A stretch of 64,000 nucleotides of DNA from Flectonema sp. DT1601 (Eukaryota): contig OZ025793.1 of the NCBI GenBank assembly GCA_964019425.1, positions 310,001 to 374,000 of the forward strand, in the 5' to 3' direction. The notes beneath the pieces were generated by a model. The model had not been told where the DNA came from and ran no database searches. It saw only the letters and a list, made by a program, of their open reading frames with translations. Of this stretch, positions 34,503 through 64,000 are shown one piece after another. Each line of letters opens with the position of its first letter. The stretch's first letter is position 1. The translations under genes were made by a program, and so were the position numbers.

Positions 34503-34543
<41 letters not shown>

Positions 34544-40643: not shown

Positions 40644-40742
40644 TTTGATCTTGTTTTTATTAAAATAAGGGGAGCGGGAGGGATGGAAGGAATAAAGGAA
40701 AAAAAAAGAAAAGGTCGATCAATTGGATCTGATCGTCGAGAA

Positions 40743-41187: not shown

Positions 41188-44100
41188 TAGAAAAATAAAA
41201 AGAATTTAAAATAAAAAAAAAGAATAAACAATGTTATCATTGTTTTTTTATCGATCGACTATGTCGATCACTTTCTATTTTCCGTCCTGGTCAAGACGCT
41301 AAACTGATTGTTTTTTTTTCAAAATTAATAAAAAAGAATATAAAAAAAAAAAAAAAAAAAAGAATAAACAATGTTATCATTGTTTTTTTTTTTATCGTTC
41401 GACTTTGTCGACTAATTTCTATTTTCCGTTTCTTTTCTTTAAAGAATAAATAAAAAGAATTTAAAATAAAAAAAAAAGAATAAACAATGTTATCATTGTT
41501 TTTTTTATCGATCGACTATGTCGATCACTTTCTATTTTCCGTCCTGGTCAAGACGCTAAACTGATTGTTTTTTTTTTTCAAAATTAATAAAAAAGAATAT
41601 AAAAAAATACAAAAAAAAGAATAAACAATGTTATCATTGTTTTTTTTATCGTTCGACTTTGTCGACTAATTTCTATTTTCCGTTTTTTTTCTTTAAAAAA
41701 TAAATAAAAAGAATTTAAAATAAAAAAAAAGAATAAACAATGTTATCATTGTTTTTTTTATCGATCGACTATGTCGATCACTTTCTATTTTCCGTCCTGG
41801 TCAAGACGCTAAACTGATTGTTTTTTTTTCAAAATTAATAAAAAAAAAAAAAAAAAAAAAAGAATAAACAATGTTATCATTGTTTTTTTTATCGTTCGAC
41901 TTTGTTGACTAATTTCTATTTTCCGTTTTTTTTCTTTAAAAAATAAATAAAAAGATTTTAAATAAAAAAAAAGAATAAACAATGTTACCATTGTTTTTTT
42001 ATCGATCGACTATGTCGATCACTTTCTATTTTCCGTCCTGGTCAAGACGCTAAACTGATTGTTTTTTTTTTCAAAATTAATAAAAAAGAATATAAGAAAA
42101 AAAAAAAAAAAGAATAAACAATGTTATCATTGTTTTTTTTTATCGTTCGACTTTGTCGACTAATTTCTATTTTCCGTTTCTTTTCTTTAAAGAATAAATA
42201 AAAAGAATTTAAAATAAAAAAAAAGAATAAACAATGTTATCATTGTTTTTTTATCGATCGACTATGTCGATCACTTTCTATTTTCCGTCCTGGTCAAGAC
42301 GCTAAACTGATTGTTTTTTTTTTTTCAAAATTAATAAAAAAGAATATAAAAAAAAAAAAAAAAAAGGAAAAACAATGTTATCATTGTTTTTTTTTTATCG
42401 TTCGACTTTGTCGACTAATTTCTATTTTCCGTTTCTTTTCTTTAAAGAATAAATAAAAAGAATTTAAAATAAAAAAAAAGAATAAACAATGTTATCATTG
42501 TTTTTTTTTGTCGATCGACTATGTCGATCACTTTCTATTTTCCGTCCTGGTCAAGACGCTAAACTGATTGTTTTTTTTTTTCAAATTAATAAAAAAGAAT
42601 ATAAAAAAATACAAAAAAAAGAATAAACAATGTTATCATTGTTTTTTTTATCGTTCGACTTTGTCGACTAATTTCTATTTTCCGTTTTTTTTTTTCTCTT
42701 TAAAAAATAAATAAAAAGAATCTAAAATAAAAAAAAAGAATAAACAATGTTATCATTGTTTTTTTATCGATCGACTATGTCGATCACTTTCTATTTTCCG
42801 TCCTGGTCAAGACGCTAAACTGATTGTTTTATTTTTTTTTTCAAAATTAATAAAAAAGAATATTAAAAAAAATACAAAAAAAAAAAGAATAAACAATGTT
42901 ATCATTGTTTTTTTTTTTATCGTTCGACTTTGTCGACTAATTTCTATTTTCCGTTTTTTTTCTTTAAAAAATAAATAAAAAGAATTTAAAATAAAAAAAA
43001 AGAATAAACAATGTTATCATTGTTTTTTTTTATCGATCGACTATGTCGATTACTTTCTATTTTCCGTCCTGGTCAAGACGCTAAACTGATTGTTTTTTTT
43101 TTCAAAATAAAAAAAATATTAAAAAAAAAAAATAAAAAAAAAGAATAAACAATGTTATCATTGTTTTTTTTTTTATCGTTCGACTTTGTTGACTAATTTC
43201 TATTTCCGTTTTTTTTCTTTAAAAAATAAATAAAAAGAATTTAAAAAAAAAAAAAAAAAAAAGAATAAACAATGTTATCATTGTTTTTTTTTATCGATCG
43301 ACTATGTCGATTACTTTCTATTTTCCGTCCTGGTCAAGACGCTAAACTGATTGTTTTTTTTTCAAAATAAAAAAAATATTAAAAAAAAAAAAATAAAAAA
43401 AAGAATAAACAATGTTATCATTGTTTTTTTTTATCGTTCGACTTTGTTGACTAATTTCTATTTTCCGTTTTTTTTCTTTAAAAAATAAATAAAAAGAATT
43501 TAAAAAAAAAAAAAAAAAAAGAATAAACAATGTTATCATTGTTTTTTTTATCGATCGACTATGTCGATTACTTTCTATTTTCCGTCCTGGTCAAGACGCT
43601 AAACTGATTGTTTTTTTTTCAAAATAAAAAAAAAATATTAAAAAAAAAAAAATAAAAAAAAAGAATAAACAATGTTATCATTGTTTTTTTTTATCGTTCG
43701 ACTTTGTTGACTAATTTCTATTTTCCGTTTTTTTTCTTTAAAAAATTAATAAAAAGAATTTAAAAAAAAAAAAAAAAAAAAAAAAGAATAAACAATGTTA
43801 TCATTGTTTTTTTTATCGATCGACTATGTCGATTACTTTCTATTTTCCGTCCTGGTCAAGACGCTAAACTGATTGTTTTTTTTTTCAAAATTAATAAAAA
43901 AGAATATAAAAAAATAAAAAAAAAAAGAATAAACAATGTTATCATTGTGTTTTTTTTATCGTTCGACTTTGTTGACTAATTTCTATTTTCCATTTTTTTT
44001 TTCTTTTTAAAAAATAAATAAAAAGAATTAAAAAAAAAAAAAAAAAAAAGAATAAACAATGTTATCATTGTTTTTTTTTATCGATCGACTATGTCGATTA

Positions 44101-44592
44101 CTTTCTATTTTCCGTCCTGGTCAGGACGCTAAACTGATTGTTTTTTCTTTAAAAATAAATAAAAAGAATAAAAAAAAAAAAAAGGAATAAACAATGTTAT
44201 CATTGTTTTTTTTTATCGATCGACTATGTCGATTACTTACTATTTTCCGTCCTGGTCAAGACGCTAAACTGATTGTTTTTTCTTTAAAATAATTAAAAAG
44301 ATTTAAAAAAAAAAAAAAAAAAAAAAAATGAATAAACAATGTTATCATTGTTTTTTTTTCTATCGATCAACTATGTCGATTAATTTCTATTTTCCGTCCT
44401 GATCGAGACGCTAAACTGATTGTTTCCTTTTTTTAAATAATAAATAAGAAAAAAAAAAAAAAAAAAAAAAAAAGAGCATCTCCCTGCTATCCCTCATATC
44501 CCCACAATAATATTATACCTTTTCATTTTCTCTTTCCTTTTCTGGTCTTTTTTTTTTCTTTTTTTTCCTTTTTCATACAACGTTTTTTATTT

Positions 44593-44623
<31 letters not shown>

Positions 44624-44879
44624 ATGTTTGATTATTTCCTCTTCATTTTTTTTTTCTTTTCTTTTCTTTCTTTTTTTTTTTTTTTCCTCTGCCTCTCTCT
44701 TAATTCTGTTCGTTTCTTTGAAACGAAAATTCATTTGAATATTATTCCTTGGTCAGCAACCATCATTGTCGCCCTTTGGGCCTGTTAAAAAAAAAATAAA
44801 AATAAAAAGAAAGTTTACATCGGGAATAGGGCAGGAGCCAAAAGCTCCCAGTCCGTTACTTCCCACTTTATCGAAATTC
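41188..44879 (+). mobile_element. 5'-truncated HERO-like copy (satellite plus terminus), head-to-tail with the next element
   Basis: Appears identical to ~55550-59233 (offset 14354). Confidence 0.85.
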
Positions 44880-45325
44880 AGCTTTTTGTGGAGCTATCCA
44901 CTCTGCGGTCTTTTTAGGCCCCTCTATCTCCTTTGCTTTATAAGACCCAATGTTTCTTCTCATCCAATTGCTTTTCTCAAGTTGCCTCTTCGGCATTCAT
45001 TTGCCAACCACATTATTTATCAAAATATATATTATAAACAAGTAGTTACTCCGATTTTTCTGTTTTAGAGCGTAGCTCGTTTTCCTTTAAACAGTATTTA
45101 CCAAAAAAAAAACTCTAGGGTTAGCTGCCCGAAATTAAAAAAAAAAGGAATAGTTTAAAAAAAAAGATCTTAACTCATCGATATTGTTTCTGAGCCATTC
45201 TCTTTTCTATTTTTTTTTTTTTTTTTATTATTGCTACTTCACAACAAAAAAAAAAAGAAACACCGGGCCGGCGGTGTCATAAAGATACTGGCAACCATCT
45301 CTCAGCCAACCCAGCCCCCGAGGCT

Positions 45326-48033
45326 TTGCAAGAGGCTATTTCGAGATCGGCTCTGGATGGGGATAAAACTTTAGTAGCCAAATGTCCTTTATGTTTTGAG
45401 ACATACCTCAAAGGTCCAGTTGCGCATTTTAGACGTAACTGTAAGTTTAGTAAGGAATTTAAGGACTATAAGTCACGTTTTCCCCCATCTACCCACTCCC
45501 AAGTTAAAGATTGTTACCACTTACCTTGTCCAGAATGTGGTAAGCTTTTCAAAAGTATCGCTACGAGAGCGAAACACTGTGTTAACGGTACATGTAAAGG
45601 TACACCTCTGTCTCCCCTCACAGGGAATAATTCAGACCTGGAACCTCCCTTTGTAGGAGAATCTGTAGATTTTAAAACTTCACAAACAGCTTTCGTTCCT
45701 TATAACTCTACAACACCCACTTTTACCCCGTTACACCCGTCTCGTCTCAAATTCCGATCTTTTGGAACTGAATGGAAGGACATCGACGTTTCTGCTGCAG
45801 AAAAACTTCAAACTTTCACCGTCGAAACAGAAAACTCTTCAAAACCTGCCGACCAACTTGATAAACTACTCAAAACGGTTTATCAAATATGTAGCGGTTT
45901 CTTTGAAGAAACAAAGCGGAATTTACCCCGCAAACAGAAATCAAGGGAAGAGGTCATCCTCGACCAAGAAAAACTTGAATGTCGTCTGGAAATGAAACAG
46001 CTAAGACAGGAGCTCCGCAAATCAGGGCCTTCTATAGAGAACGCTGTCAAATGGAAAGAGGCAAGAACGAGAATGAAAAGGATTTTCCGAATGTATCGGA
46101 ATTTAGAAAAGAAAAATTTATTCAAAAAATTACAAGATAAATTTCGTCAAAATCCGTTTACTGCCATAAAAGAAGAACTCCAAAAAGAAGATCCTCAACC
46201 CCCCTCCCTTGATATTCCAGAGGAAAAAATAATTGAACATTTTAAAAACAATTATTGTGACAATGAAAAAAAAAAAACTGATTTCACCCATCCCTCTTTT
46301 TTACCTAAGTCTGACTACAAGACAATGGATGATATCCAGTTCCCGAGCTTCGAACAGTTTGGTATTCTCTTATCAAAGAAAAAAAACAAATGTGCCCCTG
46401 GTCCCAATTGCATACCTTATGTTGTATGGAAAAAGGTCCCAACTTTTATGGAAGCACTTTACAAGGTATTAAAGAGAATTTTCGAACTCAAGGCCTATCC
46501 GGATAGTTGGGGCTTAGCATTTGTAACAATGCTCCCAAAGCCCAACTCCGATGGGAAAGACATCTCGAAAACGAGACCGATAGCTGTGGGCAACTGCGAC
46601 GGGAAAATTTTTAATACGGTTATTCAGGAAGCCGTCGCAAGCCACACTCTTTCTAAATTTAATTTTCAAAAAGGCTTTAGGAAAGGTGTCTCTGGGTGTA
46701 TCGAACATGCCACGATCACCTCAGAGATTTTTAAAGAAGTGAAAGCTCTCCGGAAAAACCTAACAATTGTCTGGGTGGATTTGGCAGATGCTTTCGGCTC
46801 AGTCAAACATCAATTAATTTTCTTTGCTTTAAAATATTTCGGAATTCACGAAAGAATAATCGGTTTCTATAAAAGGTATTATTCCTCCATGCGCGTCCAA
46901 ATCAGAGTTGGAGAAGGCCTGACGCCCACTATCCCTTTTGAAGTTGGTGTCTTTCAAGGCTGCGTTTCCTCCCCAACCCTTTTTAATTTGGTATTCCAAC
47001 TACTGCTCTTTTCCTTAGCAGTTCATCAACAGGAAGCCTACGAGTTTAACAATAAATCCCTCCAACTATTAGTTGCAGCTTTTGCTGATGATTTACAACT
47101 TACCACGTCATCAAAGGCGGGGGCAAAATTGCTAATCAAGTCGCTCGAACAGTTTCTTTCCTGGTCTCGTGGTATGAAAGCGAAACCCCAGAAATGCATT
47201 GCCCACAGCTTTGTACAAGGGAAACCAGCTAACCCGGACCTGAAGATTAACAATGTTCCGATTACGAATCTCCAGGAAGCTGGAGAGTTCAAATACCTCG
47301 GGCGTTGGTTTGAGCCGAACGCCAAAGAACAGAAATTGCGAGAGCGCCTGACCACTTTTACCAGGAATTTTTTAAAAAAAGTCGACGCCATGCCACTATA
47401 TGGGTCTCAGAAGGCTTGGTCTGTCCAACACTTGTTATTGTCAAGGTTAACATGGAGTTTAATGATCCAAAATAAAAAGAAGGATTTAAAAAAAAGAAGA
47501 AAAAAAAAAAAAAGAATAAACAATGTTATCATTGTTTTTTTATCGATCGACTATGTCGATCACTTTCTATTTTTCGTCCTGGTCAAGACGCTAAACTGAT
47601 TGTTTTTTCTTTAAAAATAATAAAAAGGATTTAAAAAAAAAAAAAAAAAAAAAAAGAATAAACAATGTTATCATTGTTTTTTTATCGATCGACTATGTCG
47701 ATCACTTTCTATTTTCCGTCCTGGTCAAGACGCAAAACTGATTGTTTTTTTTTCAAAATTAATAAAAAAGAATACAAAAAAAAATAAAAAAAAAAAGAAT
47801 AAACAATGTTATCATTGTTTTTTTTTTTATCGTTCGACGTTGTTGACTAATTTCTATTTTCCGTTTTTTTTTTTTCTTTTTAAAAAATAAATAAAAAGAT
47901 TTAAAAAAAAAAAAAAAAAGAATAAACAATGTTATCATTGTTTTTTTTATCGATCGACTATGTCGATTACTTTCTATTTTCCGTCCTGGTCAAGACGCTA
48001 AACTGATTGTTTTTTCTTTAAAAAAAAAAAAAG

Positions 48034-48070
<37 letters not shown>

Positions 48071-48844
48071 ATAAACAATGTTATCATTGTTTTTTTTTTA
48101 TCGATCGACTATGTCGATCACTTTCTATTTTCCGTCCTGGTCAAGACGCTAAACTGATTGTTTTTTTTTTCAAAATTAATAAAAAAGAATATAAAAAAAA
48201 AAATAAAAAAAAAAGAATAAACAATGTTATCATTGTTTTTTTTTTTATCGTTCGACTTTGTTGACTAATTTCTATTTTCCGTTTTTTTTCTTTTTAAAAT
48301 AAAAAGAATTTAAAAAAAAAAAAAAAAAAGAGTAAACAATGTTATCATTGTTTTTTTTATCGATCGACTATGTCGATTACTTTCTATTTTCCGTCCTGGT
48401 CAAGACGCTAAACTGATTGTTTTTTTTTCAAAATTAATAAAAAAGAATATAAAAAAAAACAAAAAAAAAAAGAATAAACAATGTTATCATTGTTTTTTTT
48501 TATCGTTCGACTTTGTCGACTAATTTTTATTTTCCGTTTTTTTTCTTTAAAAATAAATAAAAAGAATTTAAAAAAAAAAAAAAAAAAAGAATAAACAATG
48601 TTATCATTGTTTTTTTATCGATCGACTATGTCGATCACTTTCTATTTTCCGTCCTGGTCAAGACGCTAAACTGATTGTTTTTTCTTTAAAATAATAAAAA
48701 GGATTAAAAAAAAAAAAAAAAAAAAAAAAGAATAAACAATGTTATCATTGTTTTTTATCGATCGACTATGTCGATCACTTTCTATTTTCCGTCCTGGTCA
48801 AGACGCTAAACTGATTGTTTTTTCTTTAAAAAATAATTAAAAGG

Positions 48845-48875
<31 letters not shown>

Positions 48876-49267
48876 ATAAACAATGTTATCATTGTTTTTT
48901 TATCGATCGACTATGTCGATCACTTTCAATTTTCCGTCCTGGTCAGGACGCTAAACTGATTGTTTTTTCTTTAAAAATAAATAAAAAGAATAAAAAAAAA
49001 GAAAAAAAAAAGGAATAAACAATGTTATCATTGTTTTTTTTTTATCGATCGACTATGTCGATTACTTTCTATTTTCCGTCCTGGTCAGGACGCTAAACTG
49101 ATTGTTTTTTCTTTAAAAATAAATAAAAAGAATAAAAAAAAAAGAAAAAAAAAAGGAATAAACAATGTTATCATTGTTTTTTATCGATCGACTATGTCGA
49201 TCACTTTCTATTTTCCGTCCTGGTCAAGACGCTAAACTGATTGTTTTTTCTTTAAAATAATTAAAAG

Positions 49268-49300
<33 letters not shown>

Positions 49301-49553
49301 ATAAACAATGTTATCATTGTCTTTTTTCTATCGATCGACTATGTGGATCACTTTCAATTTTCCGTCCTGGTCAGGACGCTAAACTGATTGTTTTTTCTTT
49401 AAAAATAAATAAAAAGAATAAAAAAAAAAAAAAAAAAAAGGAATAAACAATGTTATCATTGTTTTTTTTCTATCGATCGACTATGTCGATTAATTTCTAT
49501 TTTCCGTCCTGATCGAGACGCTAAACTGATTGTTTCCTTTTTTTAAATAATAA

Positions 49554-49591
<38 letters not shown>

Positions 49592-52500
49592 ATCTCCCTG
49601 CTATCCTCATATCCCCACAATAATATTATACCTTTTCATTTTCTCTTTCCTTTTCTGGTCTTTTTTTTTTCTTTTTTTCCTTTTTCATACAACGTTTTTT
49701 ATTTATATTTTATTTTTTTTTTTTTTTTTCATGTTTGATTATTTCCTCTTCATATTTTTTTTCTATTCTTTCTTTTTTTTTTTTTTTTTTTTTTTCTCTA
49801 CCTCTCTCTTAATTCTGTTCGTTTCTTTGAAACGAAAATTCATTTGAATATTATTCCTTGGTCAGCAACCATCATTGTCGCCCTTTGGGCCTGTTAAAAA
49901 AAAAAAAAAAATAAAAAGAAAGTTTACGTCGGGAATAGGGCAGGAGCCAAAAGCTCCCAGTCCGTTACTTCCCACTTATCGAAATTCTGACTTATCTCTC
50001 CCTTTTGCCAAAAAAATGGACAAAATTATTAAACCTTTTTTGAAGAAATGGTGGGGATTTGTCCGCTCTGCGAACACAGTCATCCTTTTTACCGGTTCAA
50101 AGAATACTGTTGGTCTCAGACACAAAAGAGTTGAGACGCTATATAAACAAGCGCAATCAATTAAACTAGACATCCTCAGATCCTCACAGGACTCTGACAT
50201 GCACGGTGTCTACAATGTTATTATGGAGAAATCGTCCAACTGGTCGAAAAAGTTTTCAGCTTCTGCTGAGTGGGAGCGCCTTATTAAGTTTTTTTCTTAC
50301 CGTTCTCTTGCGAAGCAATCAGCTGGTCTTGGTCACCGATTGCGCGATCTACGTACTACTCGCCCCGATCTCCTTAAGCGTTTTGAAGTGGAAGCCACAG
50401 ATGAACTACTGAACTCTTTGAATAAATTACAAGTCCAAGGTCAATGGAAGGAGTGGTCTAAATGTATGATAAACGACTTCACCTGGAATAAGGTACTTAG
50501 GGAGGGAAATCCTGCCTATATCTCATTTCAACTGAAAGCGGTTACAAACACCCTCCCCTCACAAGATAATTTAAAGAGGTGGAACATCACCAATGTGGAC
50601 CAAAATTGTGTTTTGTGTGGCAAAGTGAATCCTACCCTCAGGCATGTCTTAACAGGCTGTCCTGTCTCTTTAACACAAGGGAGGTTCACGTGGCGTCACG
50701 ACAGCGTTCTAAAACGCATTGTTATCTTCTTGGAAGAGTTGATAATAAAAGCCAACAAAAGAAAAGAAAACCTTCCGCCTCCCTCTCAAACTTTTTTAAA
50801 AACAGGGGAAAATAAACCCCTAGAAAGAATTTCTAAAGAGACAGGCGAACTTTCACTAGCGAATGATTGGGTCATCCTCGACGATGTCGGTGATAACCGC
50901 CTAATTGTTCCTCTTGAAGTGTGCCATGTCTCGTCCTCTCTAAGACCAGACATTTTTATTTATTCTTTTTTTGCGAAAAGAGCACTGATTCTGGAGCTGA
51001 CGTGTCCAAATGAAGATCGTTTCGAAACCTCTCATGTCTTAAAGGAAAAGAAATACCTAAAGCTAAGAGACTCGATCATCGCTAATGGCTTCGACTGTAA
51101 CATTTTTACTATTGAAGTTGGCGTACGAGGAAACATCTGCATGGACCAGCTGAACATCTGGACACGTCACATCGGTTCACCTTTAGCACCAACAAAAGCT
51201 TTATTTTGTGAATGCACCAGAATCGCCAGACAGTGCTCATATGTTCTGTTCCAGACGAGGAACCTCCCCACGTGGCATTCAAGACCACTAATGCGCAGCA
51301 TTAAAGAAGAACCTGCCACTGCAAGTTTTATAAAAGATGGTAAAGAAATCTTCCCTGTGGAAGAAGTCAAAATCCACAAAGTAACAAAACTGAAAACGAT
51401 CGAAAAGCTCACCATTGAAAGATCGTGGCTTGAGAAATGTTTTATCTGGCAAACTTGTTACGCATCGGCTCTTTCTATTCTACTTGTTGCCAATGGTTCT
51501 TCCTCCCCGGCCCCTTCTGTTTTGTTAGATGAGGATGAGCTCACTGGACTCTCCTTGTCATTCTCTTCTATTTCTTCCATCTCTTTCCAGACTCCCCCAC
51601 CTGAACTCATGTCAACGGGATCGCAAACACTTCCTGCTGATTTCGCTATAGTGATAAGAACTCAATCTGACATGGGTTCTCAAACCCCCTTGTACAAAAA
51701 AAAAGAAGGAAAATTAAGGCTGAAACTTTCCTTGAAATGCCAGATTTTAGAAAACGAATTAGAGCAAATGAAAGAACGAATTTTTTATGTTCTATTTTTA
51801 TTTTACTTTAATGCGATGTCAGCCTCCCTCGAGAAAGACAAGCAGTTACTAAATGGATTACCTGTTGAGATCAAAGCTACCAACCAGGATCCATCCTCAC
51901 TTCCTCCTGCACCCCCTGTTTTAATTATTGAAAAAGATAGAAAAGAATATGAACTTCTGGAAGGAGTAATTCAACGGTTAACAGCAGAACGCGATGAATC
52001 GAAGACTTCTCTTTCTGCACTAGTTCGACAATATGACTTAGTGGAAGATTACAGGAAACGTGAGCTCGCAAATCTGACTCAGAGAGCAGACCTATCGGAA
52101 ATGGCGCTCTTTAATTACCATCAAAGGTTTGTTCTTCTGTCGAACGAATTGGAGACCAAATGTAATGAGGAAAGAGAAAGTAAAATTAGACTTTTCTATA
52201 CTCAACAGGAGGTCGAGAGTTTGCGTGCCGCGCGTCCCCGTATGACCCACTTTAGTCAACAAGTTTCCCCCCGAACCCCCGTTCTGTATGAATCTGTTGC
52301 TATGATGAAGATAGCAAAGAACTACCTCTCGCTCTTTACAACTACGAGTAGTCTTTTTACTCCTCTTATTAAACCCCTTATCCCTACCCTTAATTATATC
52401 ACCCCTCTTTGTCCTCTAGCCTCAATTCCTCCGACAATGCCGCAGAGTGAAGCTCTCGACCGCACGCCGACCAAGATTTTACGACAAGAGAGTCACGTTA

Positions 52501-52970
52501 TCTCCGTTAAAGAGAATACACCTATTGCGAGACAATGGTCCGAGGGTAGGATTGACTTACTCGAGAACTACTGTCGAGCAGTAGATGACTCTCTCGAAAC
52601 AAACGAGAAAGCGGCAGAGCTCTCAGAACAACTTCTGGATGCCCAACTTCGCCTCTCGGAGCTGAATCACCAACGGTGTACAACTCACGCAGAGCAGCTT
52701 GAGCAATCCATGATGTTAACGGGACTGGCGAGCGATTTAAATGCTCAACTCGCTTTGGCACGGTCTCAAATTGCGGCCCTGAAGTTCCAATTAGCTTCAT
52801 GGGCAGAAGGTTTGAGTCCGCCAGACACAGAAGAACATGAGGAAAATGAAACTCCGCCGAGAAAGTCTGAGCGTTCAACTCTGAAAAAACGAACCCCTCC
52901 ATCAAGATATCGTTACAATCGAAGGAGATGTTCTGCTGATGACGTTCACGGTGACTCCACCCCCTTGTAA
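45326..52970 (+). pseudogene. Retrotransposon ORF (ZnF, RT, CCHC, RLE, long C-terminal extension; ~1708 aa when rejoined), interrupted at 47470-49987
   Basis: CPLC and CPEC fingers; RT motifs APGPNCI, RPIA, QKGF, VDLADAFGSV, GVFQG and AFADD (47078-47092), FKYLG; CVLC..H..C, WRHDSVL and RPD..ILELTCP..K..KY endonuclease. Confidence 0.93.
47470..49987 (+). mobile_element. 5'-truncated copy of the element's own 3' region inserted in its ORF
   Basis: The empty site ATGATCCA|TGACTTATC is present at 61816-61832. The insert ends in TCGAAATTC and has no TSD. Confidence 0.92.
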
Positions 52971-53304
52971 TTCTCTTTTTCCTTACTTTCACATCACTTT
53001 GTTTATTTAGTTTTTTAGCTTATTTATTATTTATTGTTCGTTTTTGTTTGTATTATTTTATCGATATGTTTATGTCCGTCAGATCATAACGTTAATCAGG
53101 TTAATTGTTAATTGTTAATTATAAATGGTCTAAACCCCAATCCAAGTTCCCAAGGCTTGGCATAGATTTGAGTGACGCCTTACTGGCCTCCTCATCCTCT
53201 ATGAGTGGTGAGGGGGCCAGCAATGGTTTTTTTTTTTTTCTCTTATTTCTTTTTTTCTTTTTCTTTTACTCTAATATGAAATATTTTTGAACAAAATGTG
53301 ATTA

Positions 53305-53336
<32 letters not shown>

Positions 53337-54186
53337 TGTAAATGAATAATAAAAAAAAAAAAAAAAAAAAATCATGCCTTGGGAATACAACCAAAGCCCC
53401 AATTAATCGGTCCTTTCTTTTTTCCTTCTTGTCAAGTGATCGCTCCACTCGTCGATCACCAAAACCGATTGTATTTATATCTGTTCTTTTCTCAACGATC
53501 GGCTATACCGATCATTTTTTTTAAAAATAATTGTTTTCTTCTTCTCGACGATCAGATCCAATTGATCGACCTTTTCTTTTTTTTTCCTTTATTCCTTCCA
53601 TCCCTCCCGCTCCCCTTATTTTAATAAAAACAAGATCAGCTCAGCTTGATCGTTAAACTTTTTTTATTTATTTATTTTTTTTTTTTATTTATTTAAACTG
53701 ATTGTATTTATATCTGGTTATTTTTCTCAACGATCGGCTATGCCGATCGACCTTTAAAATAATTGTCTTCTTCTTCTCGACGACCAGATCCAATTGATCG
53801 ACCTTTTCTTTTTTTTTCCCTTTATTCCTTCCATCCCTCCCGCTCCCCTTATTTTAATAAAAACAAGATCAGCTCAGCTTGATCGTTATTTATTTATTTA
53901 TTTATATATTTTTTTTTTTTTTTTTTTTTTTTTTGTTGGTCCTAGTCAAGACCTTAAACTGACTAATCGGTCTTAACTTTAACTAAGTGAATGAACCCTT
54001 TCCGTTTTCCTTTTCCCTTTATTACTCTCTATCTGGTCTGTTATGTCATAAATCTCATTTAATTTTATCATTCATTTTAATTTTCACTGTTTCCCATCTA
54101 CATTTTATTTTCAAATAGTTCCGGTCTGTCTCTGATGATAAATTAAACTGATCATGTTAACTCAATTTTTTTTTTATTATGTGCAA

Positions 54187-54285
54187 GAGATACCAACACG
54201 CAAGAGATACCAACGCACATACGAGATACCAGCACTTCCGAGATACCGACACACAAGAGATACCAAGACACTTAAGATACCAGCA
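54187..54285 (+). repeat. Six iterated AGATACC motifs at ~16-19-nt spacing
   Basis: GAGATACCAAC, GAGATACCAAC, GAGATACCAGC, GAGATACCGAC, GAGATACCAAG, AAGATACCAGC; conserved in the inverted copy at ~39672-39772. Confidence 0.8.
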
Positions 54286-54480
54286 AGGACAGTGAGAGGT
54301 AGAATGAACTCTCCTCCTTGTGTCCGATCCTGATTATTTTTTGTTGAATTGGTAGTGTTACCTCATTTTGCTACTCTCGTATCTGTGTTGTGTTAACTCA
54401 TGTAAGTGATCTTAACTCCTGTTAAATAAAAAAAAAAAAATTTCAAAAAAAAAGAAATTAAAAAAGAAGAATTTTCAAAT

Positions 54481-54681
54481 AAAAAAAAAAAAAAAAAAGG
54501 CTGAATTTCGATAAGTGGGAAGTAACGGACTGGGAGCTTTTGGCTCCTGCCCTATTCCCGACGTAAACTTTCTTTTTATTTTTTTTTTTTTTTTAACAGG
54601 CCCAAAGGGCGACAATGATGGTTGCTGACCAAGGAATAATATTCAAATGAATTTTCGTTTCAAAGAAACGAACAGAATTAA
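54481..54681 (-). mobile_element. Inverted ~180-bp HERO 3' terminus plus AGCC-T18, inserted in the 3' region
   Basis: Absent from the homologous site at ~39470-39485. Confidence 0.85.
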
Positions 54682-54789
54682 GTTATATCAACCCCTGCCA
54701 CCCATTATGATCAATTCCGCTTGTTTTTTTTTTTTTCTTTTTTCTTCTTTCTTTTCTTCAAATATAAAAAAAAATTAAAAAATATAAAA

Positions 54790-57700
54790 GATGAAACAAT
54801 GTTATCATTGTTTTTTTTATCGATCGACTATGTCGATTACTTCCAGTTTTCCGTCCTGGTCAAGACGCTAAACTGATTGTTTTTTTTTTTTTTTTTTTTT
54901 AAAAAATTAATAAAAAGAATATATTAAAAAAAAAAAAAAAAAGAATAAACAATGTTATCATTGTTTTTTTTTTTATCGTTCGACTCTGTCGACTAATTTC
55001 TATTTTCCGTTTCTTTTCTTTAAATAATAAATAAAAAGAATTTAAAATAAAAAAAAGGAATAAACAATGTTATCATTGTTTTTTTATCGATCGACTATGT
55101 CGATTACTTTCTATTTTCCGTCCTGGTCAAGACGCTAAACTGATTGTTTTTTTTTCAAAATTAATAAAAAAGAATATTAAAAAAAAAAAAAAAAAAAAAA
55201 AAGAATAAACAATGTTATCATTGTTTTTTTTTATTGTTCGACTTTGTTGACTAATTTCTATTTTCCGTTTTTTTTCTTTAAAAAATAAATAAAAAGAATT
55301 TAAAATAAAAAAAAAGAATAAACAATGTTATCATTGTTTTTTTATCGATCGACTATGTCGATCACTTTCTATTTTCCGTCCTGGTCAAGACGCTAAACTG
55401 ATTGTTTTTTTTTCAAAATTAATAAAAAAGAATATAAAAAAAAAAAAAAAAAAAAAAAGAATAAACAATGTTATCATTGTTTTTTTTATCGTTCGACTTT
55501 GTTGACTAATTTCTATTTTCTGTTTTTTTTTCTTTAAAAAAAAAATAAATAAAAAGAATTTAAAATAAAAAAAAAGAATAAACAATGTTATCATTGTTTT
55601 TTTATCGATCGACTATGTCGATCACTTTCTATTTTCCGTCCTGGTCAAGACGCTAAACTGATTGTTTTTTTTTCAAAATTAATAAAAAAGAATATAAAAA
55701 AAAAAAAAAAAAAAAGAATAAACAATGTTATCATTGTTTTTTTTTTTATCGTTCGACTTTGTCGACTAATTTCTATTTTCCGTTTCTTTTCTTTAAAGAA
55801 TAAATAAAAAGAATTTAAAATAAAAAAAAAAGAATAAACAATGTTATCATTGTTTTTTTTATCGATCGACTATGTCGATCACTTTCTATTTTCCGTCCTG
55901 GTCAAGACGCTAAACTGATTGTTTTTTTTTTTCAAAATTAATAAAAAAGAATATAAAAAAATACAAAAAAAAGAATAAACAATGTTATCATTGTTTTTTT
56001 TATCGTTCGACTTTGTCGACTAATTTCTATTTTCCGTTTTTTTTCTTTAAAAAATAAATAAAAAGAATTTAAAATAAAAAAAAAGAATAAACAATGTTAT
56101 CATTGTTTTTTTTATCGATCGACTATGTCGATCACTTTCTATTTTCCGTCCTGGTCAAGACGCTAAACTGATTGTTTTTTTTTCAAAATTAATAAAAAAA
56201 AAAAAAAAAAAAAAAGAATAAACAATGTTATCATTGTTTTTTTTATCGTTCGACTTTGTTGACTAATTTCTATTTTCCGTTTTTTTTCTTTAAAAAATAA
56301 ATAAAAAGATTTTAAATAAAAAAAAAGAATAAACAATGTTACCATTGTTTTTTTATCGATCGACTATGTCGATCACTTTCTATTTTCCGTCCTGGTCAAG
56401 ACGCTAAACTGATTGTTTTTTTTTTCAAAATTAATAAAAAAGAATATAAGAAAAAAAAAAAAAAAGAATAAACAATGTTATCATTGTTTTTTTTTATCGT
56501 TCGACTTTGTCGACTAATTTCTATTTTCCGTTTCTTTTCTTTAAAGAATAAATAAAAAGAATTTAAAATAAAAAAAAAGAATAAACAATGTTATCATTGT
56601 TTTTTTATCGATCGACTATGTCGATCACTTTCTATTTTCCGTCCTGGTCAAGACGCTAAACTGATTGTTTTTTTTTTTTCAAAATTAATAAAAAAGAATA
56701 TAAAAAAAAAAAAAAAAAAGGAAAAACAATGTTATCATTGTTTTTTTTTTATCGTTCGACTTTGTCGACTAATTTCTATTTTCCGTTTCTTTTCTTTAAA
56801 GAATAAATAAAAAGAATTTAAAATAAAAAAAAAGAATAAACAATGTTATCATTGTTTTTTTTTGTCGATCGACTATGTCGATCACTTTCTATTTTCCGTC
56901 CTGGTCAAGACGCTAAACTGATTGTTTTTTTTTTTCAAATTAATAAAAAAGAATATAAAAAAATACAAAAAAAAGAATAAACAATGTTATCATTGTTTTT
57001 TTTATCGTTCGACTTTGTCGACTAATTTCTATTTTCCGTTTTTTTTTTTCTCTTTAAAAAATAAATAAAAAGAATCTAAAATAAAAAAAAAGAATAAACA
57101 ATGTTATCATTGTTTTTTTATCGATCGACTATGTCGATCACTTTCTATTTTCCGTCCTGGTCAAGACGCTAAACTGATTGTTTTATTTTTTTTTTCAAAA
57201 TTAATAAAAAAGAATATTAAAAAAAATACAAAAAAAAAAAGAATAAACAATGTTATCATTGTTTTTTTTTTTATCGTTCGACTTTGTCGACTAATTTCTA
57301 TTTTCCGTTTTTTTTCTTTAAAAAATAAATAAAAAGAATTTAAAATAAAAAAAAAGAATAAACAATGTTATCATTGTTTTTTTTTATCGATCGACTATGT
57401 CGATTACTTTCTATTTTCCGTCCTGGTCAAGACGCTAAACTGATTGTTTTTTTTTTCAAAATAAAAAAAATATTAAAAAAAAAAAATAAAAAAAAAGAAT
57501 AAACAATGTTATCATTGTTTTTTTTTTTATCGTTCGACTTTGTTGACTAATTTCTATTTCCGTTTTTTTTCTTTAAAAAATAAATAAAAAGAATTTAAAA
57601 AAAAAAAAAAAAAAAAGAATAAACAATGTTATCATTGTTTTTTTTTATCGATCGACTATGTCGATTACTTTCTATTTTCCGTCCTGGTCAAGACGCTAAA

Positions 57701-58800
57701 CTGATTGTTTTTTTTTCAAAATAAAAAAAATATTAAAAAAAAAAAAATAAAAAAAAGAATAAACAATGTTATCATTGTTTTTTTTTATCGTTCGACTTTG
57801 TTGACTAATTTCTATTTTCCGTTTTTTTTCTTTAAAAAATAAATAAAAAGAATTTAAAAAAAAAAAAAAAAAAAGAATAAACAATGTTATCATTGTTTTT
57901 TTTATCGATCGACTATGTCGATTACTTTCTATTTTCCGTCCTGGTCAAGACGCTAAACTGATTGTTTTTTTTTCAAAATAAAAAAAAAATATTAAAAAAA
58001 AAAAATAAAAAAAAAGAATAAACAATGTTATCATTGTTTTTTTTTATCGTTCGACTTTGTTGACTAATTTCTATTTTCCGTTTTTTTTCTTTAAAAAATT
58101 AATAAAAAGAATTTAAAAAAAAAAAAAAAAAAAAAAAAGAATAAACAATGTTATCATTGTTTTTTTTATCGATCGACTATGTCGATTACTTTCTATTTTC
58201 CGTCCTGGTCAAGACGCTAAACTGATTGTTTTTTTTTTCAAAATTAATAAAAAAGAATATAAAAAAATAAAAAAAAAAAGAATAAACAATGTTATCATTG
58301 TGTTTTTTTTATCGTTCGACTTTGTTGACTAATTTCTATTTTCCATTTTTTTTTTCTTTTTAAAAAATAAATAAAAAGAATTAAAAAAAAAAAAAAAAAA
58401 AAAGAATAAACAATGTTATCATTGTTTTTTTTTATCGATCGACTATGTCGATTACTTTCTATTTTCCGTCCTGGTCAGGACGCTAAACTGATTGTTTTTT
58501 CTTTAAAAATAAATAAAAAGAATAAAAAAAAAAAAAAGGAATAAACAATGTTATCATTGTTTTTTTTTATCGATCGACTATGTCGATTACTTACTATTTT
58601 CCGTCCTGGTCAAGACGCTAAACTGATTGTTTTTTCTTTAAAATAATTAAAAAGATTTAAAAAAAAAAAAAAAAAAAAAAAATGAATAAACAATGTTATC
58701 ATTGTTTTTTTTTCTATCGATCAACTATGTCGATTAATTTCTATTTTCCGTCCTGATCGAGACGCTAAACTGATTGTTTCCTTTTTTTAAATAATAAATA
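54790..58800 (+). repeat. ~4-kb satellite of alternating long (~135 bp) and short (~112 bp) hairpin-containing monomers inside the retroelement 3' region
   Basis: Dimer period ~240-255 bp; conserved palindromic cores separated by variable poly(A)/poly(T) tracts. Confidence 0.92.
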
Positions 58801-58946
58801 AGAAAAAAAAAAAAAAAAAAAAAAAAAGAGCATCTCCCTGCTATCCCTCATATCCCCACAATAATATTATACCTTTTCATTTTCTCTTTCCTTTTCTGGT
58901 CTTTTTTTTTTCTTTTTTTTCCTTTTTCATACAACGTTTTTTATTT

Positions 58947-58977
<31 letters not shown>

Positions 58978-59233
58978 ATGTTTGATTATTTCCTCTTCAT
59001 TTTTTTTTTCTTTTCTTTTCTTTCTTTTTTTTTTTTTTTCCTCTGCCTCTCTCTTAATTCTGTTCGTTTCTTTGAAACGAAAATTCATTTGAATATTATT
59101 CCTTGGTCAGCAACCATCATTGTCGCCCTTTGGGCCTGTTAAAAAAAAAATAAAAATAAAAAGAAAGTTTACATCGGGAATAGGGCAGGAGCCAAAAGCT
59201 CCCAGTCCGTTACTTCCCACTTTATCGAAATTC

Positions 59234-62200
59234 AGCTTTTTGTGGAGCTATCCACTCTGCGGTCTTTTTAGGCCCCTCTATCTCCTTTGCTTTATAAGAC
59301 CCAATGTTTCTTCTCATCCAATTGCTTTTCTCAAGTTGCCTCTTCGGCATTCATTTGCCAACCACATTATTTATCAAAATATATATTATAAACAAGTAGT
59401 TACTCCGATTTTTCTGTTTTAGAGCGTAGCTCGTTTTCCTTTAAACAGTATTTACCAAAAAAAAAACTCTAGGGTTAGCTGCCCGAAATTAAAAAAAAAA
59501 GGAATAGTTTAAAAAAAAAGATCTTAACTCATCGATATTGTTTCTGAGCCATTCTCTTTTCTATTTTTTTTTTTTTTTTTATTATTGCTACTTCACAACA
59601 AAAAAAAAAAGAAACACCGGGCCGGCGGTGTCATAAAGATACTGGCAACCATCTCTCAGCCAACCCAGCCCCCGAGGCTTTGCAAGAGGCTATTTCGAGA
59701 TCGGCTCTGGATGGGGATAAAACTTTAGTAGCCAAATGTCCTTTATGTTTTGAGACATACCTCAAAGGTCCAGTTGCGCATTTTAGACGTAACTGTAAGT
59801 TTAGTAAGGAATTTAAGGACTATAAGTCACGTTTTCCCCCATCTACCCACTCCCAAGTTAAAGATTGTTACCACTTACCTTGTCCAGAATGTGGTAAGCT
59901 TTTCAAAAGTATCGCTACGAGAGCGAAACACTGTGTTAACGGTACATGTAAAGGTACACCTCTGTCTCCCCTCACAGGGAATAATTCAGACCTGGAACCT
60001 CCCTTTGTAGGAGAATCTGTAGATTTTAAAACTTCACAAACAGCTTTCGTTCCTTATAACTCTACAACACCCACTTTTACCCCGTTACACCCGTCTCGTC
60101 TCAAATTCCGATCTTTTGGAACTGAATGGAAGGACATCGACGTTTCTGCTGCAGAAAAACTTCAAACTTTCACCGTCGAAACAGAAAACTCTTCAAAACC
60201 TGCCGACCAACTTGATAAACTACTCAAAACGGTTTATCAAATATGTAGCGGTTTCTTTGAAGAAACAAAGCGGAATTTACCCCGCAAACAGAAATCAAGG
60301 GAAGAGGTCATCCTCGACCAAGAAAAACTTGAATGTCGTCTGGAAATGAAACAGCTAAGACAGGAGCTCCGCAAATCAGGGCCTTCTATAGAGAACGCTG
60401 TCAAATGGAAAGAGGCAAGAACGAGAATGAAAAGGATTTTCCGAATGTATCGGAATTTAGAAAAGAAAAATTTATTCAAAAAATTACAAGATAAATTTCG
60501 TCAAAATCCGTTTACTGCCATAAAAGAAGAACTCCAAAAAGAAGATCCTCAACCCCCCTCCCTTGATATTCCAGAGGAAAAAATAATTGAACATTTTAAA
60601 AACAATTATTGTGACAATGAAAAAAAAAAAACTGATTTCACCCATCCCTCTTTTTTACCTAAGTCTGACTACAAGACAATGGATGATATCCAGTTCCCGA
60701 GCTTCGAACAGTTTGGTATTCTCTTATCAAAGAAAAAAAACAAATGTGCCCCTGGTCCCAATTGCATACCTTATGTTGTATGGAAAAAGGTCCCAACTTT
60801 TATGGAAGCACTTTACAAGGTATTAAAGAGAATTTTCGAACTCAAGGCCTATCCGGATAGTTGGGGCTTAGCATTTGTAACAATGCTCCCAAAGCCCAAC
60901 TCCGATGGGAAAGACATCTCGAAAACGAGACCGATAGCTGTGGGCAACTGCGACGGGAAAATTTTTAATACGGTTATTCAGGAAGCCGTCGCAAGCCACA
61001 CTCTTTCTAAATTTAATTTTCAAAAAGGCTTTAGGAAAGGTGTCTCTGGGTGTATCGAACATGCCACGATCACCTCAGAGATTTTTAAAGAAGTGAAAGC
61101 TCTCCGGAAAAACCTAACAATTGTCTGGGTGGATTTGGCAGATGCTTTCGGCTCAGTCAAACATCAATTAATTTTCTTTGCTTTAAAATATTTCGGAATT
61201 CACGAAAGAATAATCGGTTTCTATAAAAGGTATTATTCCTCCATGCGCGTCCAAATCAGAGTTGGAGAAGGCCTGACGCCCACTATCCCTTTTGAAGTTG
61301 GTGTCTTTCAAGGCTGCGTTTCCTCCCCAACCCTTTTTAATTTGGTATTCCAACTACTGCTCTTTTCCTTAGCAGTTCATCAACAGGAAGCCTACGAGTT
61401 TAACAATAAATCCCTCCAACTATTAGTTGCAGCTTTTGCTGATGATTTACAACTTACCACGTCATCAAAGGCGGGGGCAAAATTGCTAATCAAGTCGCTC
61501 GAACAGTTTCTTTCCTGGTCTCGTGGTATGAAAGCGAAACCCCAGAAATGCATTGCCCACAGCTTTGTACAAGGGAAACCAGCTAACCCGGACCTGAAGA
61601 TTAACAATGTTCCGATTACGAATCTCCAGGAAGCTGGAGAGTTCAAATACCTCGGGCGTTGGTTTGAGCCGAACGCCAAAGAACAGAAATTGCGAGAGCG
61701 CCTGACCACTTTTACCAGGAATTTTTTAAAAAAAGTCGACGCCATGCCACTATATGGGTCTCAGAAGGCTTGGTCTGTCCAACACTTGTTATTGTCAAGG
61801 TTAACATGGAGTTTAATGATCCATGACTTATCTCTCCCTTTTGCCAAAAAAATGGACAAAATTATTAAACCTTTTTTGAAGAAATGGTGGGGATTTGTCC
61901 GCTCTGCGAACACAGTCATCCTTTTTACCGGTTCAAAGAATACTGTTGGTCTCAGACACAAAAGAGTTGAGACGCTATATAAACAAGCGCAATCAATTAA
62001 ACTAGACATCCTCAGATCCTCACAGGACTCTGACATGCACGGTGTCTACAATGTTATTATGGAGAAATCGTCCAACTGGTCGAAAAAGTTTTCAGCTTCT
62101 GCTGAGTGGGAGCGCCTTATTAAGTTTTTTTCTTACCGTTCTCTTGCGAAGCAATCAGCTGGTCTTGGTCACCGATTGCGCGATCTACGTACTACTCGCC

Positions 62201-64000
62201 CCGATCTCCTTAAGCGTTTTGAAGTGGAAGCCACAGATGAACTACTGAACTCTTTGAATAAATTACAAGTCCAAGGTCAATGGAAGGAGTGGTCTAAATG
62301 TATGATAAACGACTTCACCTGGAATAAGGTACTTAGGGAGGGAAATCCTGCCTATATCTCATTTCAACTGAAAGCGGTTACAAACACCCTCCCCTCACAA
62401 GATAATTTAAAGAGGTGGAACATCACCAATGTGGACCAAAATTGTGTTTTGTGTGGCAAAGTGAATCCTACCCTCAGGCATGTCTTAACAGGCTGTCCTG
62501 TCTCTTTAACACAAGGGAGGTTCACGTGGCGTCACGACAGCGTTCTAAAACGCATTGTTATCTTCTTGGAAGAGTTGATAATAAAAGCCAACAAAAGAAA
62601 AGAAAACCTTCCGCCTCCCTCTCAAACTTTTTTAAAAACAGGGGAAAATAAACCCCTAGAAAGAATTTCTAAAGAGACAGGCGAACTTTCACTAGCGAAT
62701 GATTGGGTCATCCTCGACGATGTCGGTGATAACCGCCTAATTGTTCCTCTTGAAGTGTGCCATGTCTCGTCCTCTCTAAGACCAGACATTTTTATTTATT
62801 CTTTTTTTGCGAAAAGAGCACTGATTCTGGAGCTGACGTGTCCAAATGAAGATCGTTTCGAAACCTCTCATGTCTTAAAGGAAAAGAAATACCTAAAGCT
62901 AAGAGACTCGATCATCGCTAATGGCTTCGACTGTAACATTTTTACTATTGAAGTTGGCGTACGAGGAAACATCTGCATGGACCAGCTGAACATCTGGACA
63001 CGTCACATCGGTTCACCTTTAGCACCAACAAAAGCTTTATTTTGTGAATGCACCAGAATCGCCAGACAGTGCTCATATGTTCTGTTCCAGACGAGGAACC
63101 TCCCCACGTGGCATTCAAGACCACTAATGCGCAGCATTAAAGAAGAACCTGCCACTGCAAGTTTTATAAAAGATGGTAAAGAAATCTTCCCTGTGGAAGA
63201 AGTCAAAATCCACAAAGTAACAAAACTGAAAACGATCGAAAAGCTCACCATTGAAAGATCGTGGCTTGAGAAATGTTTTATCTGGCAAACTTGTTACGCA
63301 TCGGCTCTTTCTATTCTACTTGTTGCCAATGGTTCTTCCTCCCCGGCCCCTTCTGTTTTGTTAGATGAGGATGAGCTCACTGGACTCTCCTTGTCATTCT
63401 CTTCTATTTCTTCCATCTCTTTCCAGACTCCCCCACCTGAACTCATGTCAACGGGATCGCAAACACTTCCTGCTGATTTCGCTATAGTGATAAGAACTCA
63501 ATCTGACATGGGTTCTCAAACCCCCTTGTACAAAAAAAAAGAAGGAAAATTAAGGCTGAAACTTTCCTTGAAATGCCAGATTTTAGAAAACGAATTAGAG
63601 CAAATGAAAGAACGAATTTTTTATGTTCTATTTTTATTTTACTTTAATGCGATGTCAGCCTCCCTCGAGAAAGACAAGCAGTTACTAAATGGATTACCTG
63701 TTGAGATCAAAGCTACCAACCAGGATCCATCCTCACTTCCTCCTGCACCCCCTGTTTTAATTATTGAAAAAGATAGAAAAGAATATGAACTTCTGGAAGG
63801 AGTAATTCAACGGTTAACAGCAGAACGCGATGAATCGAAGACTTCTCTTTCTGCACTAGTTCGACAATATGACTTAGTGGAAGATTACAGGAAACGTGAG
63901 CTCGCAAATCTGACTCAGAGAGCAGACCTATCGGAAATGGCGCTCTTTAATTACCATCAAAGGTTTGTTCTTCTGTCGAACGAATTGGAGACCAAATGTA
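59234..64000 (+). mobile_element. Next head-to-tail HERO-like copy (runs off the window)
   Basis: Matches 44880-47469 joined to 49988-52164. Confidence 0.9.
59680..64000 (+). CDS. Apparently intact retrotransposon ORF (ZnF-RT-CCHC-RLE-extension), 3'-incomplete in the window
   Basis: Uninterrupted version of 45326-52970, reading ...LTWSLMIHDLSLPFAKK... across the empty site. It is probably missing from the ORF track because its stop lies beyond 64000. Confidence 0.9.
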   Translation, partial: MQEAISRSALDGDKTLVAKCPLCFETYLKGPVAHFRRNCKFSKEFKDYKSRFPPSTHSQVKDCYHLPCPECGKLFKSIATRAKHCVNGTCKGTPLSPLTGNNSDLEPPFVGESVDFKTSQTAFVPYNSTTPTFTPLHPSRLKFRSFGTEWKDIDVSAAEKLQTFTVETENSSKPADQLDKLLKTVYQICSGFFEETKRNLPRKQKSREEVILDQEKLECRLEMKQLRQELRKSGPSIENAVKWKEARTRMKRIFRMYRNLEKKNLFKKLQDKFRQNPFTAIKEELQKEDPQPPSLDIPEEKIIEHFKNNYCDNEKKKTDFTHPSFLPKSDYKTMDDIQFPSFEQFGILLSKKKNKCAPGPNCIPYVVWKKVPTFMEALYKVLKRIFELKAYPDSWGLAFVTMLPKPNSDGKDISKTRPIAVGNCDGKIFNTVIQEAVASHTLSKFNFQKGFRKGVSGCIEHATITSEIFKEVKALRKNLTIVWVDLADAFGSVKHQLIFFALKYFGIHERIIGFYKRYYSSMRVQIRVGEGLTPTIPFEVGVFQGCVSSPTLFNLVFQLLLFSLAVHQQEAYEFNNKSLQLLVAAFADDLQLTTSSKAGAKLLIKSLEQFLSWSRGMKAKPQKCIAHSFVQGKPANPDLKINNVPITNLQEAGEFKYLGRWFEPNAKEQKLRERLTTFTRNFLKKVDAMPLYGSQKAWSVQHLLLSRLTWSLMIHDLSLPFAKKMDKIIKPFLKKWWGFVRSANTVILFTGSKNTVGLRHKRVETLYKQAQSIKLDILRSSQDSDMHGVYNVIMEKSSNWSKKFSASAEWERLIKFFSYRSLAKQSAGLGHRLRDLRTTRPDLLKRFEVEATDELLNSLNKLQVQGQWKEWSKCMINDFTWNKVLREGNPAYISFQLKAVTNTLPSQDNLKRWNITNVDQNCVLCGKVNPTLRHVLTGCPVSLTQGRFTWRHDSVLKRIVIFLEELIIKANKRKENLPPPSQTFLKTGENKPLERISKETGELSLANDWVILDDVGDNRLIVPLEVCHVSSSLRPDIFIYSFFAKRALILELTCPNEDRFETSHVLKEKKYLKLRDSIIANGFDCNIFTIEVGVRGNICMDQLNIWTRHIGSPLAPTKALFCECTRIARQCSYVLFQTRNLPTWHSRPLMRSIKEEPATASFIKDGKEIFPVEEVKIHKVTKLKTIEKLTIERSWLEKCFIWQTCYASALSILLVANGSSSPAPSVLLDEDELTGLSLSFSSISSISFQTPPPELMSTGSQTLPADFAIVIRTQSDMGSQTPLYKKKEGKLRLKLSLKCQILENELEQMKERIFYVLFLFYFNAMSASLEKDKQLLNGLPVEIKATNQDPSSLPPAPPVLIIEKDRKEYELLEGVIQRLTAERDESKTSLSALVRQYDLVEDYRKRELANLTQRADLSEMALFNYHQRFVLLSNELETKC

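Follow-up and report, generated by a model that had tools for sequence, protein, structure and literature searches.

The window analyzed here (64,000 nucleotides (nt) of Flectonema sp. DT1601 contig OZ025793.1, positions 310,001 to 374,000) is a nest of repeats from 21.9 kb rightwards, in which one element, A, forms a head-to-tail pair. Element A is best explained as a recently multiplied diplonemid retrotransposon without long terminal repeats (non-LTR), of the type that combines reverse transcriptase (RT) with a restriction-like endonuclease (RLE). Its ~6.3-kb 3′ region would carry an internal tandem array and terminate at a fixed point past a predicted hairpin. We give this reading a probability of roughly 65%. 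A preliminary description, made from the letters of the window, had proposed a giant HERO-like retrotransposon that disperses its own satellite. The underlying observation is real and largely as described, although three further families with the same 3′ hairpin (B, C and D) had been overlooked. The features of element A and its copies are as follows; ORF denotes open reading frame, MITE a miniature inverted-repeat transposable element and X1 to X4 the public sequencing runs.

44880..59233 (+): unit 1 of the retrotransposon, 11,636 nt minus two secondary insertions; 5′ end provisional
45194..47468 (+): ORF copy 1, 5′ part, with two zinc fingers and RT; cut by a nested insertion
47469..49987 (+): nested 5′-truncated copy, 15 monomers and the 480-nt terminus; blunt, without target duplication
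49988..52970 (+): ORF copy 1, 3′ part, with CCHC knuckle, PD..E..K endonuclease, 564-residue tail and stop
52971..53371 (+): proximal 3′ region, ending in an A-rich tract (53312-53371) that an X1 contig bridges
53372..54743 (+): pre-array region; contains a 233-bp duplication, 17-bp repeats and ~100 nt with 79% identity to family B
54484..54682 (−): 180-nt copy of the terminus in inverted orientation, then AGCC and a T run; not present at the matching site of the 39414-40244 copy
54744..58753 (+): internal array of 31 tandem monomers (111-153 nt), 79% AT
58754..59233 (+): terminus, 480 nt, ending GAAATTC, no poly(A)
59176..59218 (+): end type A, the predicted CAAAA-loop hairpin near the 3′ end
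59234..64000 (+): unit 2, comprising the leader and an ORF without interruption that continues beyond the window; frame from 59548, with its first ATG at 60346
41193..44879 (+): 5′-truncated upstream copy, 25 monomers and terminus; equals 55547-59233 bar two 1-nt indels
34242..40742 (−): inverted 3′-region copy, back to the equivalent of ~53540; ~20 monomers, B and MITE insertions, no ORF attached
28419..30516 (+): 5′-truncated copy, 12 monomers and terminus
31199..32211 (+): array remnant, −3/−2/−1 variant order present, terminus lost
33777..34241 (−): array remnant, target of the 34242 copy
25226..25482 (−): 257-nt piece of the ORF flanked by two B ends; 97% identity to 52254-52509

The 3′ end GAAATTC is common to six copies (30516+, 34242−, 44879+, 49987+, 54503− and 59233+), with 5′ limits at ~28419, 40742, 41193, 47469, 54682 and full length, respectively. 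This pattern had been recognized before; two of the copies (34242, 54503) lie on the minus strand, and the one at 54503 is a 180-nt inverted insertion within the 3′ region. Fixed 3′ ends combined with variable 5′ truncation and the absence of LTRs are what is expected of an RLE-type non-LTR retrotransposon. The proposed unit layout stands for the 3′ region (52971-59233). The ~5.1-kb ORF of copy 1, however, is split at 47468/9 by a blunt 2.5-kb insertion and the uninterrupted frame of unit 2 runs off the window, and the ~450-nt leader assumed a TTG start at 59680, whereas the first in-frame ATG is at 60346. The nested copy (47469..49987) and the 54503 copy have one terminus variant in common: they match at all 163 positions compared and are distinct from the array copies, so at least two source copies have been active.

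The terminus-to-leader junction GAAATTCAGCTTTTTG occurs exactly twice, as had been reported, at the ends 44879 and 59233. Both occurrences lie inside near-identical duplicates (between 41193-47468 and 55547-61822 there are two 1-nt indels and no substitutions; 49988-52164 equals 61824-64000) and therefore provide evidence of a single event. Since the 2.5-kb insertion and two indels distinguish the units, we rejected a pure assembly artefact. The head-to-tail pair could instead be a later DNA-level tandem duplication of one nested insertion, which would make 44880 an insertion point and not a true 5′ end. This alternative, compatible with the retrotransposon reading, is a serious one that we rate somewhat below even odds. 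It is favored by the identity of the two copies across the junction for 6.3 kb bar two indels, by the absence of the junction from all of the public runs, and by the lack of a ribozyme marking the 5′ end: Rfam gave no rRNA or ribozyme match at E ≤ 1 in 21,500-64,000, its sole results being two chance matches near 32.3 kb, and our own loose descriptor found no HDV-like ribozyme at three sites searched on both strands (the junction, the A-rich tract and the start of B). Multimeric copying, on the other hand, fits two observations: on two occasions a B 3′ fragment, 135 nt long in one case and 432 nt in the other, lies ahead of the one fixed start of full-length B, and 2.6 copies of a 156-nt end stand in tandem. 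Template jumping is known for R2 (PMC11371274), and it or a later duplication may explain both the B pattern and the terminus-leader join.

The encoded protein

Read through the nested insertion, the ORF has 1,752 codons and encodes, in a single frame, two zinc-finger-like motifs (residues 64 and 112), an RT with FADD at residue 630, a CCHC knuckle (966-983), a restriction-like endonuclease with PD..ELT..K (1079-1114) and a 564-residue tail. Pfam-type matches are to RVT_1 (E 3e-26) and zf-RVT, and the closest solved structures in the PDB are R2 proteins (E 7.5e-33), ahead of L1 (1e-19). All 28 sequences aligned have the same CCHC and PD..E..K residues. Judged by these motifs, the element is an RLE-type non-LTR retrotransposon. 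The first in-frame ATG (residue 267) lies downstream of both zinc fingers and is preceded by nine out-of-frame ATGs, so translation of the fingers would need a non-AUG start. Within 59548-60346, the zinc fingers come after an extended T tract and an AG, and their translation may depend on non-AUG initiation or trans-splicing.

The tail sets this protein apart from 132 relatives, in which the corresponding segment has a median of 17 and a maximum of 399 residues. A search of 1.84 billion representatives returned 20 matches to the tail, all of them pieces of this element family, and the Atlas gave only generic coiled-coil look-alikes below the recognition threshold; for P0001, Atlas matches were confined to unnamed RT clusters. 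In an RT tree of 125 rows, which took in unnamed or uncharacterized relatives and no named HERO, NeSL, R4 or CRE sequence, the element sits on a long branch (1.13) with identities of at most 39%, and the few named relatives are uncharacterized proteins of sponge, sea urchin and mussel. Three related loci from a metagenome scan (26-40% identity) are, at 1.1-1.4 kb, too short to show 3′ ends.

Near-identical pieces of the ORF form two clusters, of 235 and 47 members, 15 of each being inspected, on contigs of up to 1.39 Mb. Such numbers of near-identical pieces indicate, at the sequence level, that the element multiplied recently. The two clusters, which represent two subfamilies, are 97-100% identical over RT and endonuclease and 39-67% identical over residues 1400-1750, a contrast that suggests exchange of 3′ modules between them. 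A third variant (P0226, 87%) stops just past the endonuclease. One 5′-truncated ORF copy (P0086) is preceded at its N-terminus by a short tandem repeat whose translation suggests a unit of ~27 nt. A second, distant RT family (the P0049 cluster, 24% identical, 208 pieces) occurs on long ENA contigs.

The internal array and the extent of the copied unit

All seven arrays in the window, 0.5-4 kb long, alternate monomers of ~140 and ~115 nt in a ~257-nt dimer; the long monomers measure ~140-150 nt. Both copies that extend to the first monomer (31 and about 20 monomers long) have the same variant there, and six of the seven arrays agree in their last-monomer variant. The diagnostic order CAGGAC, TTACTTACTA, GTCCTGATCGAG at monomers −3, −2 and −1, described as kept in several copies, was found in 4/7 arrays (59233, 44879, 34242 and 32211), two of which are one duplicate. 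Fixed first and last monomers imply that, within the window, the array is an internal repeat of variable length and not a free satellite; no free-standing satellite was seen in the window outside the element boundaries. The claim that the satellite travels within the element is supported: the array is internal and likely moves with the copied unit.

The copied unit likely runs ~6.3 kb past the stop, through the 4-kb array, to the fixed end. The ORF is linked to this region by one X1 contig (1,771 nt, with variants of its own) that covers 51800-53223 and 53382-53564 and crosses the A-rich tract, with 163 letters between these segments against 158 in the window. Elsewhere in X1, GAAATTCA is followed by a new flank, again showing the fixed 3′ end, which is also read across at other loci in four database proteins (P0066, P0071, P0241 and P0244); X2 contains a 5′-truncated ORF on a new flank. 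Summed contig depth, which is not a copy number, rises from the 5′ part of the ORF to the terminus (4.8, 9.1 and 26-33 in X1; 2.3, 4.05 and 6.2 in X2), as 5′ truncation predicts. Contig cover is absent from the leader (59235-59619) and most of 53690-54495, which has no bearing on presence. The new flank in X1 at 59234 and the first ~20 nt of the leader look similar; together with the ~27-nt repeat before P0086, they may point to a second preferred target.

We consider it unlikely that the A-rich tract near 53.3 kb is the end of the retrotransposon proper, with the array-bearing 5.8 kb being a fused non-autonomous element of the B, C or D kind. The tract is poly(A)-like and lies 340 nt after the stop, most relatives reside on ~4-kb contigs with the short median tail given above, the pre-array region has ~100 nt and the hairpin in common with ORF-less B, and an X3 contig ends inside the tract. 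However, the X1 contig passes through the tract with different variants, no hairpin was found near it, and none of the terminus copies in the window begins at a defined point there. The preliminary description would have yielded to ORF copies ending at the tract; the X1 crossing supports it, whereas the contigs that stop there leave room for such copies.

A predicted 3′ hairpin common to four families

Three further families (11 ends of B, two of C and one of D) also have fixed 3′ ends:

34656..36149 (−): family B, 1,359-nt ORF-less unit with a preceding 135-nt B 3′ fragment; blunt insertion in a terminus
22816, 22972, 23128, 24585, 25224, 25483, 26867, 40599, 40743: further B ends
22661..22729 (+): end type C, same hairpin; second copy at 27141-27209
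23396..23458 (−): end type D, same hairpin

All four end types carry GGGC-N-stem-CAAAA-stem-CWGYCC with different stem sequences and terminate in AYTC, 24-28 nt after the motif. Pairing is kept in 36 of 36 cells; four of the nine pairs change on both sides, the one-sided changes are G-U, and none of 500 shuffles reached this covariation. The four ends fold to the same predicted shape (z −1.4 to −3.2). No poly(A) tail follows any of the 20 hairpin ends in the window, and B, C and D showed neither an RT or endonuclease remnant by tblastn nor a tRNA head. A conserved 3′ RNA structure common to partners is the mark of systems in which a long interspersed element (LINE) recognizes 3′ ends stringently, and the modeled hairpin is a candidate for such a signal. 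A 3′ stem-loop is the likely recognition signal in pairs of LINEs and short interspersed elements (SINEs; PMC4176376), and R2 offers a precedent for template jumps and 3′-UTR recognition (PMC3414825).

Beside these ends, the 156-nt tandem of B 3′ ends (22726-23128) comes straight after a C end, as a small repeat forming from an element end. Family B also has an internal inverted repeat (24152-24424), of which a lone 145-nt piece lies at the left edge of the island (21880-22024).

The retrotransposon reading suggests the following mechanism. The protein would bind the CAAAA hairpin of its own RNA, and target-primed reverse transcription would start 24-28 nt downstream, at AYTC. Stalling at variable points would leave short terminus and array copies in excess of ORF copies. 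The same protein may also copy RNAs of the families without an ORF (B, C and D) or sister 3′ regions, and head-to-tail joins would arise by insertion into, or template jumping onto, other copies. The outcome would be an island of nested repeats next to a gene cluster rather than a polarized telomeric array. It is speculation that AGCTTTTT acts as a Pol III terminator, that the single T run at 54503 reflects U-tailing or that trans-splicing signals come from an upstream terminus.

Nesting is pervasive. Family DNA follows all 20 hairpin ends in the window, 15 in sense and five in antisense orientation, three pairs of ends not being independent. At other loci, which may derive from the same assembly as the window, 51 database proteins provided 33 flanks of at least 10 residues: 15 are A terminus (10), array (2), B (2) or D (1), and the others are MITE (2), the ORF itself (6) or unplaced (10). 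X2 holds a B copy in the ORF, at 50308/50310, that is absent from the window. The insertions are blunt and without target duplication, and no target consensus was apparent by eye among the junctions, all window targets being family DNA. Such nesting may reflect self-targeting or the purging of genic insertions.

Several observations weigh against the retrotransposon reading as a whole. The A-rich tract is bridged in one of four public runs; X2 and X3 contigs stop at or inside it and X4 falls short, and since 53224-53381 was skipped as repeat and 13 loose ends were left uninspected, copies ending there are possible. No sequence record spans ORF to terminus, no public run bridges the terminus-to-leader junction, and the inverted 3′-region copy in the window carries no ORF. 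The hairpin alignment comprises four sequences, from which the structure itself was derived, and B, C and D are not attributable to this RT rather than to another element. Finally, the 20 ends were sampled from a repeat island, so their landing on family DNA is partly expected.

The repeat island and known systems

The left 21.8 kb of the window hold minus-strand eukaryotic genes (MORN-kinase, TRAF-PDZ-EF-hand). The TRAF-PDZ-EF-hand protein shares 80% identity with a protein of Flectonema neradi and 34% with one from Namystynia, which identifies the host as a diplonemid, a marine single-celled flagellate. The contig that includes the window measures 461,604 nt. The element families have no blastn match at E ≤ 1e-5 in 1-21,870, and the island adjoins the head of the minus-strand gene cluster.

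In telomeric retrotransposon arrays of the HeT-A/TART type, copies are uniformly oriented. The hairpin ends in the window are not (11 plus, nine minus), the head-to-tail junctions reduce to one duplicate, and there is no doubled TTAGGG or CCCTAA in the window; the HeT-A/TART-like polarized array and the structural chromosome domain of the preliminary description are therefore not borne out. We regard it as improbable that the element forms a specialized chromosome structure, be it a telomere-like array or a centromere. The position of the island is suggestive, as are its ~140-150-nt long monomers in an array of 79% AT, in view of the Trypanosoma brucei centromeres, which are situated between gene clusters, together with degenerate retroelements and AT-rich repeats of ~147 bp (PMC1868937, PMC3292466); the centromere idea draws on this resemblance. 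However, the ends occur on both strands without telomeric repeats, the 0.5-4-kb arrays are always inside or cut from element boundaries, copies exist on many contigs, and in D. papillatum long repetitive stretches are a general feature of the space between gene clusters (PMC10161547). A broader model, in which one RT serves exchangeable multi-kb 3′ modules by hairpin shape and distance and prefers its own copies, so making ~140-bp AT-rich repeat islands that act as diplonemid centromeres, is a long shot.

Rolling-circle Helitrons are characterized by 5′-TC, 3′-CTRR and an A|T or T|T target. It is most improbable that A-D are non-autonomous Helitron/Helentron-type elements with central tandem repeats and a passenger RT gene: multimers, a subterminal hairpin, internal repeats, missing target duplications and two blunt insertions at A|T are in line with this, and central repeats of DINE/Helitron elements are known satellite sources (PMC9659126), but the ends are AYTC, the other targets are neither A|T nor T|T, and an intact RT-endonuclease frame with 5′-truncated copies is on board.

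Other features of the window include a likely MULE fragment (32212-33776) that cuts two arrays and contains a SWIM zinc finger (weak Pfam match), a CCHC knuckle and AAKP repeats. A ~306-nt element with terminal inverted repeats and TA flanks, resembling a Tc1/mariner-type MITE, has three copies, one of them 5′-short (36941-37245, 38966-39246 and 40243-40548), in the array and pre-array region, and also lies within ORF copies at other loci (P0068, P0250). In the gene-rich part, 20132-20245 gave a weak protein-level match to the N-terminal region of the ORF (60% over 38 residues), possibly an old fragment, and a 1,100-residue ORF (233-3535, −) has many QKFGRRYLAKMEL-like motif repeats and a weak IQ match. 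No tRNA genes were found in the window.

The element offers a concrete, still mobile case of a non-LTR retrotransposon moving a multi-kb higher-order repeat, a proposed route to new satellites, and shows how the long stretches of repeats that separate diplonemid gene clusters might arise. R2-type proteins are being studied as insertion tools, and the four-way covarying hairpin is a short candidate 3′ signal for an RLE-type RT that lacks a strict target and copies at least 6 kb of non-coding RNA. Because diplonemids have a CENP-A candidate but no recognizable kinetochore (10.1101/2024.08.06.606595), the array is also a ready probe for the centromere question. Repeat regions between diplonemid gene clusters are described as full of R2-like ORFs, with rigorous element annotation deferred (PMC10161547); the searchable text of its supplements, outside which the repeat section may lie, contains neither 'HERO' nor 'non-LTR'. 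We found no literature on Flectonema transposable elements, no title on diplonemid retrotransposons describing such an element and no other description of one, within a coverage that left out subscription journals and Repbase Reports.

Among known systems, HERO is a candidate relative by its knuckle and endonuclease motifs, which appear similar. The label 'HERO-like' draws, by analogy, on these motifs and on the clade description in PMC4640811, where HERO has a single RT and restriction-like endonuclease frame and largely non-specific targets. HERO has been reported from sea urchin, lancelet and fish (PMC9004415), and the family-profile relatives of our element come from sponge, sea urchin and mussel. 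It differs in its 564-residue tail, ~6.3-kb 3′ region, long branch with ≤39% identity and protist host. With R2 it shares N-terminal zinc fingers, RT, CCHC and endonuclease, blunt insertions and 5′ truncation, and, with R2 and its SIDEs, non-autonomous partners using the 3′ end and template jumps (PMC11371274, PMC3414825). Unlike in the R2 clade, no rDNA target or 5′ ribozyme was found here in 21,500-64,000, and the partners keep the hairpin shape only, not the 3′ sequence as R2 SIDEs do.

HeT-A/TART and SLACS/CZAR likewise have long non-coding regions, head-to-tail joins and internal repeats. The present copies lack the polarity and telomeric repeats of the former, and no spliced-leader or other RNA gene target of the kind used by the latter was found by Rfam in 21,500-64,000, a search that a divergent diplonemid spliced-leader gene could escape. 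ZfL2-1/ZfL2-2 also have a stem-loop near the 3′ end as the likely recognition signal (PMC4176376); these are L2-clade AP-endonuclease elements, and B, C and D are without tRNA head, short tail repeat or poly(A). Variable-number tandem repeats occur in the retrotransposon 3′ UTRs of Hebe from Adineta vaga and of Ogre/PisTR-A (PMC2861651, PMC9659126), but Hebe is a polyadenylated jockey-clade element with 1-4 copies of 72 bp (PMC2861651) and Ogre is an LTR element, whereas here 12-31 monomers form a long-short dimer. Tandem repeats in a retrotransposon 3′ UTR are thus already known; what stands out here is how large they are, along with the orphan tail, the apparent swap of modules and the hairpin shared by four end types.

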